A stretch of 16,269 nucleotides of DNA from the UHGV virus genome UHGV-0094181. One strand, written 5' to 3'. Below are positions 2,905 to 14,997 of this stretch, one piece after another. The position numbers and the translations under genes are program-made. The notes beneath the pieces were generated by a model. The model made no database searches. It saw nothing but the letters and a program-made list of their open reading frames with translations, and was not told where the DNA came from. The first letter of the stretch is position 1. Each line of letters begins with the position of its first letter. Source of the DNA: a virus.

Positions 2905-3083
2905 CGTTTTGTTCTCCTGCGTTTGCGTTTCTTTGCTGCTCGTCGTGCCGCTGCAATACCGGTATGGCGGCGCTTTGGTGCCGGGATGATGTTGTCAGCC
3001 ATCAGGACATGTGGCTTTGCAATTAGCGCAGGAGCCCAAAAACGAGTCGGGTACGTTAACAAGCCGAAAAATGCCACACGCAT
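2901..3083 (-). CDS. Hypothetical small protein, 60 aa, hydrophobic N-terminus and very basic C-terminus (RRAAKKRKRRRTKR)
   Basis: GGAGGT RBS 5 nt upstream of ATG; TAATG overlap with upstream gene; composition unusual so coding status uncertain. Confidence 0.4.
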   Translation of the reverse strand: MRVAFFGLLTYPTRFWAPALIAKPHVLMADNIIPAPKRRHTGIAAARRAAKKRKRRRTKR

Positions 3084-10740: not shown

Positions 10741-12015
<1,275 letters not shown>

Positions 12016-12023
12016 GACATTCC

Positions 12024-12055
12024 CGCTCTTACACATCCCAGCCCTGAAAAAGGGC
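12024..12055 (+). promoter_or_regulatory. nutR (boxA CGCTCTTACACAT; boxB GCCCTGAAAAAGGGC)
   Basis: Consensus boxA and boxB hairpin immediately after cro. Confidence 0.85.
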
Positions 12056-12115
12056 ATCAAATTAAACCACACCTATGGTGTATGCATTTATTTGCATACA
12101 TTCAATCAATTGTTA
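12056..12115 (+). terminator. tR1-like region (Rho-dependent terminator zone with ATGCA-TTTATTT-TGCAT hairpin) between nutR and cII
   Basis: Position and sequence resemble lambda tR1 as I recall it; no strong intrinsic U-tract. Confidence 0.45.
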
Positions 12116-12134
12116 TCTAAGGAAATACTTACAT

Positions 12135-12428
12135 ATGGTTCGTGCAAACAAACGCAACGAGGCTCTACGAATCGAGAGTGCGTTGCTTAACAAAATCGCA
12201 ATGCTTGGAACTGAGAAGACAGCGGAAGCTGTGGGCGTTGATAAGTCGCAGATCAGCAGGTGGAAGAGGGATTGGATTCCAAAGTTCTCAATGCTGCTTG
12301 CTGTTCTTGAATGGGGCGTCGTCGACGACGATATGGCTCGATTGGCACGACAAGTTGCTTCGATTCTCACCAATAAAAAACGCCCGGCGGCAACCGAGCG
12401 TTCTGAACAAATCCAGATGGAATTTTAA
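12135..12428 (+). CDS. cII: CII transcriptional activator, 97 aa
   Basis: MVRANKRNEALRIESALLNKIAMLGTEKTAEAVGVDKSQISRWKRDWIPKFSMLLAVLEWGVVDDDMARLARQVASILTNKKRPAATERSEQIQMEF matches lambda CII; ORF-track ORF extends upstream spuriously. Confidence 0.95.
   Translation: MVRANKRNEALRIESALLNKIAMLGTEKTAEAVGVDKSQISRWKRDWIPKFSMLLAVLEWGVVDDDMARLARQVASILTNKKRPAATERSEQIQMEF
12144..12157 (-). promoter_or_regulatory. pRE-like CII box (TTGC-N6-TTGC on minus strand) within cII 5' coding region
   Basis: Minus-strand TTGCGTTTGTTTGC at the position of lambda pRE -35. Confidence 0.6.
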
Positions 12429-12449
12429 CTGCTTTCTATGGAGTTAATT

Positions 12450-13250
12450 ATGGCAAAAAAACCTACACCAGACCAGGTAAAAAAGATTCGTTCCGGCATT
12501 ACCAAGAAAATACGGTTTGAGGTTTTCAAGCGCGATGGCTTCAAATGCCAGTACTGTGGGAGTTCTGCGCCAGACGTCATCCTTCATGTCGACCATATCA
12601 ACCCAGTTAGCAAGGGTGGCGATAACGACATGATGAACCTTATTACTTCTTGCGATAGTTGTAATGGCGGGAAAAGCGACAAACTGCTCAGCGATAACTC
12701 AATAATGGAAAAGCAAAGGCAGCAACTCCAGGAACTTAATACCAAGCGAGAGCAACTGGAGATGATGATCAAGTGGCGAGATGGTCTTAAGAGCCTAAAA
12801 GACGATGTTGTTGATATTGTCGCTACCAAAATTGACGACTGCATTGCACCATTTACTGTTAATGACAATGGGCGAAAATCTATCAAGAGATGGCTTCGAA
12901 TATATAAGCTTGAAGAAATACTCGATGCGATTGAGATTGCCGCAGACAAAAAACTCACCCAAGAAATAACCAATGAGCTTACTGGTGAATTCTTTGAGTA
13001 CATCCCTCGCATAGCAGCGACAAAAAGAAAACCGCCAAAAGAACAAAGGATTCTATACATCAGAGGAATCCTTAAAAACCGCATATATATCAATCAAAAC
13101 CATGTAATGAGTTATCTCAAGGCATGGCTTTCATACGACTTAGATCTCGATGAACTTACTGAGTTTGCGAAAACAGTACCTAACTGGACAACGTTCAAGG
13201 AGTGGGTATCTGAACGCATTCGTGAAGCTCAGGAAGAACTCCCGTACTAA
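12450..13250 (+). CDS. HNH endonuclease, about 266 aa (N-terminal HNH nuclease motif, C-terminal domain of unknown function)
   Basis: CQYCG...HVDHINPVSKGGDNDMMNLITSCDSCNGGKSDK is a textbook HNH (C-x2-C, H-x-D-H, N, C-x2-C-N); GGAG RBS 6 nt before ATG at 12450. Confidence 0.85.
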   Translation: MAKKPTPDQVKKIRSGITKKIRFEVFKRDGFKCQYCGSSAPDVILHVDHINPVSKGGDNDMMNLITSCDSCNGGKSDKLLSDNSIMEKQRQQLQELNTKREQLEMMIKWRDGLKSLKDDVVDIVATKIDDCIAPFTVNDNGRKSIKRWLRIYKLEEILDAIEIAADKKLTQEITNELTGEFFEYIPRIAATKRKPPKEQRILYIRGILKNRIYINQNHVMSYLKAWLSYDLDLDELTEFAKTVPNWTTFKEWVSERIREAQEELPY

Positions 13251-13261
13251 AGGTGGACAAA

Positions 13262-14149
13262 ATGGCACGTTCAAGAAATATCAAACCAGGCTTTTTCACC
13301 AATGATGAATTAGCTGAGTGTTCTCCATATGCCCGTCTCCTTTTTGCCGGGTTATGGACTATTGCTGACAAAGAAGGGCGGCTGGATGATCGCCCAAAGA
13401 AAATTAAAGCAATGGTACTGCCTTTCGATGATGTGGACTGCAATGATCTGCTTCAGCAGCTTCACAGTCACAAATTCATCAACCGATATCAGGTAAATGG
13501 CGGCTCATATATCCAAATCAATAACTGGAAAAAGCACCAGAACCCTCACTGCAAAGAAGCAGCCAGTGAGATACCAGAACCAGTAGAGAACAATAACAGC
13601 ACCATGCAAGTACAGTGCAAGGACGATAAAGAGGAAGAGAAGGAGGATGCCGAATCACTGCAAGTCATTGAAAACAATGAAGCACCAGAAAAGCACCATG
13701 CAAGTACAGTGCAAGAACCAGTAGAGAACAGTTTAAATCCTGCTGATTCCCTTAACCTGATTCCTGATTCCCTTAACCTGATTCCTGATTCCCTTTCTAA
13801 CACCCAAGCCGCTGACGCGACTTGTGAAGGGGGTGGGGCTGATGTCCATAAAATTTCAAGTCGCTATGCATTCGAAGGAAATATCGTTCGGTTAAACCAC
13901 AAGGACTACGAAGCATGGAAGCGCCTGTATCCGAACATTGACCTGAATTACGAGCTGGAAAGGCTGGATATCGAATTTAGCCATGAGAAGCCAAAGAACT
14001 GGTTTATCACTGCCAGCCAGAAACTCAGCTACCAGAACAAGCAGGCGTTATCCAGACCGGTACGCAAGGTTGCTAATGGACTTAAGGCTGAAAACTTTGC
14101 CGCCAAAGATTACGGGCAAACTGAAATGCCTTCATGGGCGCAGGAGTGA
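13262..14149 (+). CDS. Putative replication initiator / replisome organizer, 295 aa (occupies the lambda O slot)
   Basis: N-terminus MARSRNIKPGFFTNDELAE...RLLFAGLW...EGRL resembles phage replication-protein N-terminal domains as I recall them; followed by DnaC-like loader; contains iteron-like DNA repeats; AGGTGG RBS. Confidence 0.7.
   Translation: MARSRNIKPGFFTNDELAECSPYARLLFAGLWTIADKEGRLDDRPKKIKAMVLPFDDVDCNDLLQQLHSHKFINRYQVNGGSYIQINNWKKHQNPHCKEAASEIPEPVENNNSTMQVQCKDDKEEEKEDAESLQVIENNEAPEKHHASTVQEPVENSLNPADSLNLIPDSLNLIPDSLSNTQAADATCEGGGADVHKISSRYAFEGNIVRLNHKDYEAWKRLYPNIDLNYELERLDIEFSHEKPKNWFITASQKLSYQNKQALSRPVRKVANGLKAENFAAKDYGQTEMPSWAQE
13577..13798 (+). repeat. Iteron-like direct repeats inside the initiator gene: 16-17 bp repeat (13577-13592, 13715-13730), 24 bp repeat (13598-13621, 13692-13715), and a tandem 21-bp CTGATTCCCTTAACCTGATTC array (13743-13798); candidate replication origin
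   Basis: Repeats identified by eye; the 24-bp repeat is translated in two different reading frames, so conservation is at the DNA level. Confidence 0.5.
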
Positions 14150-14151
14150 AC

Positions 14152-14997
14152 ATGACGCTGGATGAAAAGATCTCCCAACTGGAGAAAAAACTTGCAGAAT
14201 TGAGTTCTCCGCCAATTGCTATCGAGCATACAGCTGTAGAAATTGGCACTGGCATCTGTGAAAAACATGGTGAGTTTGAGCAGCGTAACCGTTACTCGAC
14301 TGGGCCAATTAAGTTTGCCTCAAGACCTAGCGAATGCCCGGAATGCATGAGAGATGCGCTTATTCGGCTACAGGCGGAGAAGATTAAAAGCGACGAGGAA
14401 TCACGTAAGCGCAATGTCGAGTTTCTGTTGAATAATCTTGATATTCCTGAACGATTCAAGGGTTGCACACTACAGAACTACGAGCCAGTCAACGACGATG
14501 CAAAGAGAGTGCTCAGGGTGTGTCAGGCATACGCCAGCAAATGGCCTGAGAGGTTACAGAAAGGCGGTGGGCTGGTTATGTGTGGAAAGCCTGGTACTGG
14601 AAAGAATCATCTTGCACTGGCTATCGCCCGGCACGCAATTACGGAACATCAAAGCTCAGCTATTTTCACAACGGCGCTGAAAATTGCCAGAGAATATAAA
14701 TCAACATGGTCGAAAAACTCCACCCGCACAGAGGATGAAGTGATCCGACAGTTCACTAAACCTGACCTGCTAATTATCGATGAGGTTGGTGTGCAGTTTG
14801 GAAGCGAGGCGGAAAAGATGATCATGTTCGAAATCATCAACACCCGCTACGAGCGCATGAAGCCAACAATCCTGATTAGCAACCAGAGCAAAGATGAACT
14901 GTCTGCATTCATTGGTGAGCGTGTTATTGACAGGATGAATGATGGCGGCGGATGCACCCTTGCGTTTACATGGGATAGTTACAGGAGCAGATCGTGA
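14152..14997 (+). CDS. DnaC/IstB-like AAA+ helicase loader, about 281 aa, with N-terminal Cys-rich segment
   Basis: Walker A GKPGTGKNH and Walker B LLIIDEVG; AGGAG RBS; occupies the lambda P slot. Confidence 0.85.
   Translation: MTLDEKISQLEKKLAELSSPPIAIEHTAVEIGTGICEKHGEFEQRNRYSTGPIKFASRPSECPECMRDALIRLQAEKIKSDEESRKRNVEFLLNNLDIPERFKGCTLQNYEPVNDDAKRVLRVCQAYASKWPERLQKGGGLVMCGKPGTGKNHLALAIARHAITEHQSSAIFTTALKIAREYKSTWSKNSTRTEDEVIRQFTKPDLLIIDEVGVQFGSEAEKMIMFEIINTRYERMKPTILISNQSKDELSAFIGERVIDRMNDGGGCTLAFTWDSYRSRS

Follow-up and report, generated by a model that had tools for sequence, protein, structure and literature searches.

HNH proteins encoded next to phage terminase genes were once annotated as homing enzymes and proved, by way of their synteny, to be packaging subunits (Kala et al., 2014, as cited in PMC12315714). 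Another phage nuclease with a described role is Odn of ICP1, which combines a T5orf172 nuclease with an iteron-binding domain derived from RepA_N; it cleaves the origins of PLE satellites, and the iterons are required for cleavage (PMC8263062). Here, we analyze a gene of the virus genome UHGV-0094181 (16,269 nucleotides (nt), one strand, called the window below), which lies between the cII gene and a replication initiator gene and encodes an HNH nuclease with a long C-terminal domain (HNH-CTD). Judged by its sequence, it is a real, intact HNH nuclease gene of a large uncharacterized family, and the nuclease is probably linked to the replication origin, and not a randomly inserted homing endonuclease. 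Taken alone, the gene is nothing unusual and had been annotated already. What is unexpected, and open to direct tests, is its pairing with replication initiators across phyla, the organizer-like character of the C-terminal domain, and the alternative nuclease cassettes that occupy its position.

The open reading frame (ORF) comprises 801 nt and encodes 266 amino acids (aa) plus stop, according to the ORF listing and to a reading of the sequence. The gene and its parts are as follows:

12440-12443, plus strand: Shine-Dalgarno sequence GGAG, read from the sequence, 6 nt before the ATG at 12450
12450-13250, plus strand: HNH-CTD nuclease gene, a member of phrog_16986
12546-12680, plus strand: HNH (beta-beta-alpha-Me) catalytic domain, aa 33-77, with the layout CxxC...DH...N...CxxCN
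12696-12842, plus strand: predicted long single helix, aa 83-131 (AlphaFold pLDDT, the predicted local distance difference test, about 90), with the conserved motif REQLEMM..WR
12864-13238, plus strand: all-helical C-terminal domain, aa 139-263, family-specific, with features resembling DnaD (DDBH2)

The first-pass annotation had placed this ORF 21 nt behind the cII stop and 11 nt in front of the initiator ATG, and coordinates and sequence agree: the cII TAA is found at 12426-12428, the nuclease TAA at 13248-13250, and the initiator ATG at 13262, after 11 nt that contain AGGTGG. The in-frame ATG farther upstream, at 12438, is preceded by neither a Shine-Dalgarno sequence nor another ribosome-binding site. 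The same form of 801 nt and 266 aa is annotated in GenBank as 'HNH endonuclease' in the near-identical phages Louie and Dewey (99.6% identity).

The affiliation with phrog_16986, a family of unknown function, is clear (3.7e-151, aa 11-259 versus profile positions 1-248 of 248). A word-indexed search retrieved 1,586 relatives at E <= 1e-5, which, among the matches listed, are mostly 245-290 aa long, with a query coverage of about 90% or higher. With a profile of the C-terminal part only, 1,413 clusters at 50% identity were found among 1.84 billion representatives. Nearly all C-terminal domains among the matches listed start around residue 74, directly behind the HNH domain, and the domain occurs essentially only behind an HNH. 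The distant full-length homologues in the phage collection have one property in common: every one is encoded directly upstream of a replication initiator or replisome organizer, often with overlapping genes. They are found in:

Pseudomonas JBD44, LC3I3 and P27: about 50% identity
Oenococcus Krappator27: 44% identity
Komagataeibacter phiKX1: 38% identity
Vibrio 219E41-type phages: 36% identity

A genome scan with one genome per species yielded at least 483 relatives, and 80 loci from more than 10 phyla were examined (32-59% identity), including Proteobacteria, Planctomycetes, Verrucomicrobia, Bacteroidetes, Acidobacteria, Cyanobacteria, Firmicutes, Patescibacteria, and one archaeal metagenome-assembled genome. 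Downstream ORFs were called with a simple ORF caller, and a locus was considered tightly coupled when a downstream ORF of at least 200 aa started about -100 to +20 nt from the HNH stop (n = 35). The next gene encodes a replication initiator in 32 of these 35 loci (28 by phmmer clustering with known phage initiators, four by PHROGs); the three exceptions are one methyltransferase and two unknowns. Overlaps between the stop codon of the nuclease gene and the start codon of the initiator gene are frequent. The linked initiators are of the window type (phrog_17247/16167/5810), DnaD-like (phrog_1701/6251), primosomal with DUF1376 (phrog_3992/9327), O-like or HTH_36 (phrog_270/678/391), or belong to a further group (phrog_20437/2562). 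Because several unrelated initiator families are found downstream, a single DNA target cannot explain the position of the gene. The mean pairwise identity over 30 gene pairs is 41.9% for the nuclease versus 12.3% for the adjacent initiator, and the two sets of identities are positively correlated (Spearman 0.46). Therefore, the two genes seem to be an old, partly co-inherited pair, and of the two it is the nuclease that evolves slowly.

Longer family members of about 400-570 aa also exist, mostly in Bacteroidetes, Gastranaerophilales, Cyanobacteria, and Patescibacteria (417-570 aa; loci L027, L031, L033, L035, L046, L048, L053, and L071, with a match start at 3001 or 2093; proteins P0126, P0157, P0165, P0186, P0191, and P0238). 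The genes downstream of these long forms are often not initiator genes. It was considered whether the long forms are fusions with initiators, but the extensions are heterogeneous, have no PHROG match, and are not initiator-like, so this idea was rejected.

A full-text search of the published literature found no description of the family, of its C-terminal domain, or of the synteny. The Oenococcus Krappator paper merely lists the homologue as an HNH endonuclease of the replication module, and public annotation so far is confined to 'HNH endonuclease' or 'unknown function'.

The N-terminal HNH motif that had been recognized by the first-pass annotation is confirmed by Pfam HNH (PF01844; 1e-13, aa 33-77, 51.6 bits versus a cut-off of 21.4), and HNH_5 (PF14279; 3.4e-12) is a second match. 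The residues D48, H49, N63, and N72, which make up the His-Me finger motif, and the zinc-site CxxC pairs C33/C36 and C68/C71 are invariant in 40/40 sequences of the family alignment. An active enzyme is predicted because of this invariance, and the domain should represent the HNN variant known from Cas9, IscB, and McrA-type domains. The concern that the catalytic residues might not be conserved thus proved unfounded. Similarity to named proteins is restricted to the HNH part. This is true for a PDB profile search (4h9d, IscB, Cas9) and for the nearest curated models, guided_IscB (1.5e-16; 60.4 bits versus a family cut-off of 175) and Cas9d (2e-8), and no curated NCBI family name was obtained beyond the sub-threshold IscB match. 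PADLOC gave generic HNH matches only (PtuB, ZorE, Cas9), so the assignment to a known defense system was rejected. PHROGs of the endonuclease VII type matched weakly, and so did the HNH domain of ZRANB3, which is both a DNA annealing helicase and an endonuclease.

These generic matches would suit a general early nuclease that is unrelated to the origin and acts in host-DNA degradation, in anti-defense, or as a structure-specific resolvase. HNH domains are indeed generic, and the position of the gene would then simply be a permissive module boundary; the boundary between regulatory and replication genes is variable and also holds an antirepressor gene or small ORFs. However, random placement would hardly put 32 of 35 loci from different phyla at one boundary, the PADLOC and NCBIfam matches are at the level of the HNH domain only, and the related phage Louie has a gene for a RusA-like resolvase within its nin region. 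Such a general function is thus regarded as highly improbable.

About 190 C-terminal residues had been described as unrecognized. This still holds for searches of Pfam, NCBIfam, and PDB sequences, none of which gave a match, but the region is in fact a strongly conserved domain. The AlphaFold model of the C-terminal 183 residues has a pLDDT of 91 and consists of one helix of about 47 residues followed by seven shorter helices. Since designed helical bundles score as high, this model alone is weak evidence. Conserved motifs are IKxWL..EILDAI..A, FFxxIPxI, YxRGIxRNR, and W246, and nine C-terminal residues are invariant in the 40-sequence alignment (R100, Q102, M105, W109, Y203, G206, I207, R211, and W246). 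The long helix of residues 83-131 is a possible coiled-coil linker or dimerization element in the model.

Several results bear on a possible relation of the C-terminal domain to replisome organizers. A Foldseek search of BFVD gave one significant match, which is unnamed, and weak matches to 'replisome organizer' proteins (E > 0.1). The hhalign comparison of a 257-sequence profile of the domain with a DnaB_2 alignment (PDB-verified DnaD sequences and 38 PF07261 proteins) aligned residues 124-189 to the DnaD domain with P = 7.2e-4 and a probability of 26%; as controls, the reversed comparison had P = 0.28, and 0/30 column shuffles were better than 0.015. Pfam DnaB_2 (PF07261) itself touched 2/19 sequences of the domain, with a best E of 0.031. 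The DnaD motif YxxxIxxxW is absent from the aligned segment, which reads FFxxIPxI and lacks the tryptophan, and a second motif-like stretch, YxRGIxRNR, has R where W is expected. Taken together, the similarity to DnaD is moderately supported by these comparisons as a lead, not as family membership. Three further origins of the domain were rejected. It does not seem to be a copy of a part of the initiator (hhalign versus the initiator family, P 0.38), it has no significant match to the DnaD-like organizer of Oenococcus, and a domain swap with HK639 gp53, the 178-aa protein of yong1, or the T5orf172 protein of OW1E2 is not apparent, as none of them carries it.

The gene directly downstream contains the iterons:

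13262-14149, plus strand: replication initiator of 295 aa (phrog_17247, 1.5e-191), with an N-terminal domain that opens with MARSRNIKPG and an internal origin
13743-13795, plus strand: iterons, CTGATTCCCTT three times with 21-nt spacing, within the initiator gene (repeat families D3 and D4)
13599-13618 and 13693-13712, no strand assigned: two identical 20-nt hairpin-forming repeats, GCACCATGCAAGTACAGTGC (repeat family D2)

The initiator also matches the replication-initiation families phrog_16167, phrog_12556, and phrog_1408. The iterons lie about 0.5 kb downstream of the nuclease gene, and their segment encodes DSLNLIPDSLNLIPDSL in the initiator; in the alignment of the initiator family LIPDS is invariant from E. 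coli through Pseudomonas. The two hairpin repeats are 94 nt apart in the part that encodes the acidic linker, just upstream of the three iterons, and stem-loops are predicted on the minus strand. Louie has them as well, HK639, yong1, and OW1E2 have degenerate versions, and the prophage of E. coli 20AR0300 (locus L009) lacks them. As this prophage keeps its HNH-CTD gene without the repeats, the hairpins were rejected as a required target of the nuclease.

Our favored reading, to which we give somewhat less than an even chance, is that the protein is an accessory nuclease of the replication-initiation module, which would be brought to the complex of initiator, loader, and origin and would nick or cut there. 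It is favored because of the synteny in 32 of 35 loci in front of unrelated initiators, the overlap of stop and start codons, the uniform architecture with its invariant residues, and the domain resembling replisome organizers. These four features are not expected for sequence-specific homing, and the synteny argument follows the precedent of the terminase-associated HNH proteins.

The mechanism that we propose begins with a two-part nuclease, in which a predicted zinc-bound HNH/HNN domain is connected by a helix of about 50 residues to a helical C-terminal domain resembling the DnaD type. It would be expressed together with the initiator from the early rightward operon, and genes for nucleases and replisome organizers would form an old, widely inherited two-gene unit. 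The C-terminal domain may carry the nuclease to the initiator/helicase-loading complex or to opened origin DNA, and the HNH domain may then nick or cut at the origin, at the iterons inside the next gene. The likely purpose would be that, by way of the nick or break, theta replication gives way to a rolling-circle or recombination-dependent mode, and concatemers for packaging would result. The function would be accessory, and T5orf172 genes in the same slot as well as HNH domains inserted in frame into initiators would be alternative suppliers of the cut; a T5orf172 nuclease in the slot is a possible functional analogue. The gene with its intact active site, its family, the synteny, and the optionality are shown by the data, and recruitment, substrate, the type of cleavage (nick or double-strand break), and benefit for the phage are all inferred from anatomy and context. 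The most specific version states that the protein is a hitherto unrecognized component of theta modules across phyla, that its organizer-like domain docks on the initiator or loader, that its Cas9/IscB-type HNH domain nicks one strand of opened origin DNA, that the change from theta to rolling-circle or recombination-dependent replication is triggered by the 3' end or break so formed, and that T5orf172 proteins and HNH domains inside initiators deliver the same cut. In this full form the proposal is unlikely to be correct.

Several observations weigh against an accessory role in replication. One is mechanistic: origin melting is aided by supercoiling, which would be lost by relaxation if a theta origin were nicked. 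Another is the optionality of the gene. The searches gave 93 phage records with the N-terminal type of the window initiator, and the HNH-CTD gene is present in only about 10 of them; conversely, full-length HNH-CTD homologues were found in 31 phage records, about 10 with the initiator type of the window. Most phages of the initiator family lack the nuclease, and this initiator family works without it. This is also the weak side of the partnership with the initiator that had been considered by the first-pass annotation, and which is otherwise supported by synteny, stop/start overlap, conservation, and the DnaD-like domain. The case that the gene is universal in the initiator family, which had been named as an argument against mobility, does not apply, since it is absent from most members. 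Moreover, its slot may be occupied by a KilAC antirepressor gene, by small ORFs, or by nothing at all, as the following examples show:

RSK1: nothing
Fyn8: KilAC antirepressor
41E34.2, NL and LESphi2: small ORFs
HK639: 134-aa unknown protein
Hafnia phage yong1 (L003:2956-3492): 178-aa sliding-clamp-like fragment
E. coli OW1E2 prophage (L010:2296-2988): 230-aa T5orf172 (GIY-YIG superfamily) protein
Pseudomonas phage F_ET2439sp/ET602 (L091:1322-1720): 132-aa T5orf172 gene, Pfam 4e-16

The 178-aa protein of yong1 is weakly similar to the beta clamp of DNA polymerase III, namely, to its central domain (Pfam E 1.8e-4, TIGR00663 E 1.9e-7), and the PHROG label of its family is 'RusA-like'. The T5orf172 protein of OW1E2 matches the candidate defense families PDC-S57 and PD-Lambda-1 in PADLOC.

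The T5orf172 gene of F_ET2439sp/ET602 is of particular weight here, as it replaces the HNH-CTD gene of LC3I3 exactly up to the initiator ATG, between flanks that are 94% (cII region) and 97% (initiator) identical. The first 27 nt of the initiator ORF at the junction (L004:4731-4757 versus L091:1720-1746) contain seven differences, all of which are synonymous and fall in the codons for MARARNIKP, compared to about 3% difference elsewhere. Judged from this pattern, they could represent a co-conversion tract or a protected nuclease target. Furthermore, HNH domains have been inserted in frame into initiators, between the N-terminal domain and the iteron-encoding linker and with mosaic flanks, for example, in:

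E. coli 20AR0300 prophage (L009:3001-4038): initiator with in-frame HNH; upstream HNH-CTD gene also kept
Pseudomonas phage P27 (L005:4431-5513): initiator with in-frame HNH; upstream HNH-CTD gene also kept

In these insertions, one flank is diverged and the other is identical. In the 20AR0300 prophage 458 nt are present in place of positions 13435-13742 of the window, and the right boundary is exactly the first iteron at 13743. The exchange of T5orf172 cassettes and the in-frame HNH insertions look like the behavior of mobile nucleases.

This would be explained if the gene encoded a selfish free-standing homing endonuclease. Such an enzyme would cut the initiator gene or the origin in related phages without it (intron-less homing or marker exclusion), and repair would copy its gene along with the neighboring part of the initiator; the T5orf172 genes in the slot would then be competing homing genes. 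We consider this a serious if doubtful candidate, and a selfish or competitive nuclease that is aimed at initiator or origin is the main rival of our favored reading. The sporadic distribution within the initiator family, the swap of nuclease genes between nearly identical flanks and the similar occupation of the slot in OW1E2, the silent changes in the codons for the invariant MARxRNIKPG, and the asymmetric flanks of the in-frame insertions all fit to homing. Free-standing homing enzymes typically share this layout, with the nuclease at the N-terminus and a helical domain at the C-terminus, occasional copies are decayed, and the much higher similarity of the protein across phyla compared to that of its neighbors could reflect horizontal spread. 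However, no empty-site allele was found. In E. coli, 18 of 5,426 complete genomes contain the nuclease gene, the initiator allele is present in the same 18 genomes, and the nuclease gene lies directly upstream in every row that lists both. Homing also needs homologous flanks and one target, in contrast to the unrelated initiator families that follow the gene in 32 of 35 loci across phyla, and it is the putative DNA-binding domain that is conserved, not its supposed targets. A homing-type DNA-binding module (NUMOD, IENR1, helix-turn-helix) was not found by Pfam at E <= 0.01. Lastly, the architecture is uniform over at least 1,400 clusters (50% identity) and the active site is intact in all members that were aligned, which argues for long-term selection. 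Homing and partnership with the initiator had been put forward by the first-pass annotation as alternatives; both are kept as candidates, and its interpretation is partly supported.

One E. coli record (P0087, 172 aa) represents a frameshifted HNH-CTD gene, with 117 identical aa before it changes to the +1 frame. It shows that the gene can decay in prophages.

The chimeric initiators and the T5orf172 genes also bear on a further explanation, namely, an origin-directed weapon between mobile elements in the manner of ICP1 Odn. The nuclease would be led by its organizer-like domain to the initiation complexes or origins of rival phages, prophages, or satellites with related replication proteins and destroy them, and its own origin would be spared through linkage with a resistant allele of iterons and initiator. 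There is the precedent of Odn itself (PMC8263062), and the nuclease carries a domain resembling those of replisome organizers. T5orf172 nucleases occupy the same slot, one of them with similarity to candidate defense families, and fusions of the initiator N-terminal domain with an HNH domain occur in E. coli 20AR0300 and Pseudomonas P27. The tight linkage to initiator and origin would meet the need of a nuclease for an immune target next to it. A gene of Bordetella phages, for example, of IFTN4 (L097:1801-2631), that is annotated as 'HNH endonuclease' might be added, the first 119 aa or so of which match the N-terminus of the initiator, though Pfam found no HNH domain in it. In contrast, the C-terminal domain of the free-standing protein is unlike the DNA-binding N-terminal domain of the cognate initiator, so that a mimicry of specificity of the Odn type is unsupported for it. 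The gene is located in the lytic early operon and would thus not protect a lysogen, and a conserved C-terminal domain fits poorly with an arms race against fast-changing origins. Altogether, a weapon of this kind seems improbable, and the accessory nuclease of the replication module is retained as the favored reading.

The other genes of the early region that flank the nuclease and initiator genes are:

12135-12428, plus strand: cII gene (Pfam Phage_CII 1.7e-48; DNA about 98% identical to lambda cII)
14134-14997, plus strand: DnaC/IstB-like helicase loader, the third gene of the module (IstB_IS21 1.9e-18; phrog_50 5.7e-86)

The order of the early rightward operon is cro-cII-HNH-initiator-loader. 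The nuclease gene had been described as an insertion into the gap between cII and O of lambda, which is misleading: the similarity to the DNA of lambda, 434, and HK633 breaks off at about 12424-12429, the cII stop, and the entire replication module is non-lambda, as the initiator is no homologue of O and the loader is DnaC-like and not P.

At positions 12377-12404 (minus strand), inside the 3' end of cII, there is a strong terminator-like hairpin with a T run, and records in which the lambda oop RNA is annotated at that place share this stretch with about 98% identity. The lambda oop promoter would presumably lie in the replaced region beyond the cII stop, and no promoter-like site for oop was found in that region. 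Rfam detected no RNA family in 11000-14500 at E <= 0.1. Farther upstream, a 132-aa ORF (10741-11139, minus strand) is situated just downstream of the gene for a cI-like repressor and overlaps it. It has an internal Met followed by a signal-peptide-like stretch, and, from these features, it may be a moron for a secreted protein or lipoprotein that is expressed in the lysogen.

The transition from theta replication to concatemers is poorly understood in lambdoid and many other temperate phages, and a conserved nuclease that is wired to the initiator would make this question testable. If the nuclease is selfish or competitive instead, the principle of Odn, i.e., that domains of replication proteins are borrowed to attack origins, would be widespread beyond ICP1 and PLE, and this could help to explain the quick diversification and swapping of replication modules and iterons in phages. 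In both cases more than 1,000 database entries named 'HNH endonuclease' would gain a functional hypothesis based on context, and a new family of helical domains would be defined.

A comparison with known systems places the protein between several of them. With free-standing homing enzymes of the type of T4 Mob/Seg, I-HmuI, and I-TevI it shares the N-terminal nuclease and C-terminal binding-type domain, the intergenic location next to a conserved essential gene, the sporadic distribution, and the alternation of HNH and GIY-YIG-type occupants. In contrast to them, it has no NUMOD, IENR1, or helix-turn-helix module and no empty sites were found, its position is conserved before unrelated initiators, and it is much better conserved than its flanks. 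The C-terminal domain may resemble the DnaD/DnaB_2 (DDBH2) domains of Firmicute primosome proteins and of phage organizers, and the N-terminal domain of SPP1 G39P, with a match below the Pfam thresholds. However, it is fused to a nuclease and not to a winged-helix origin-binding domain, and the signature tryptophan is not conserved. IscB, Cas9, and group II intron maturases, which have HNH domains as well, nick a single strand of a duplex that is opened or hybrid, and in the case of group II introns the nick supplies a primer. The present protein has no RuvC domain, guide RNA, or reverse transcriptase, and its likeness to these enzymes is at the level of the domain, not of membership.

Like the terminase-associated HNH proteins of the HK97 gp74 type, it is a small phage HNH protein, the gene of which is kept beside one class of DNA-transaction genes in many unrelated phages. 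It is not a member of that group, whose genes are located in the late operon next to terminase and cos, whereas the HNH-CTD gene belongs to the early operon between cII and the initiator, and gp74-type proteins lack the helical C-terminal domain of about 190 aa. The likeness to ICP1 Odn (Barth, Nguyen and Seed, 2021) lies in the combination of a mobile-nuclease domain with a domain related to replication-initiation proteins, and the catalytic family of Odn, T5orf172, fills the very same slot in E. coli OW1E2 and Pseudomonas F_ET2439sp/ET602. Odn acts at iteron-containing origins, and its RepA_N iteron-binding domain was copied from its target. In contrast, the catalytic domain described here is of the HNH type, its gene is linked to its own initiator, and its C-terminal domain, DnaD-like at best, shows no similarity to the N-terminal domain of the neighboring initiator according to the hhalign comparison given above. 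An architecture like that of Odn is, however, present in two related loci, namely, in the fusions of initiator and HNH domain of the 20AR0300 prophage and of phage P27.

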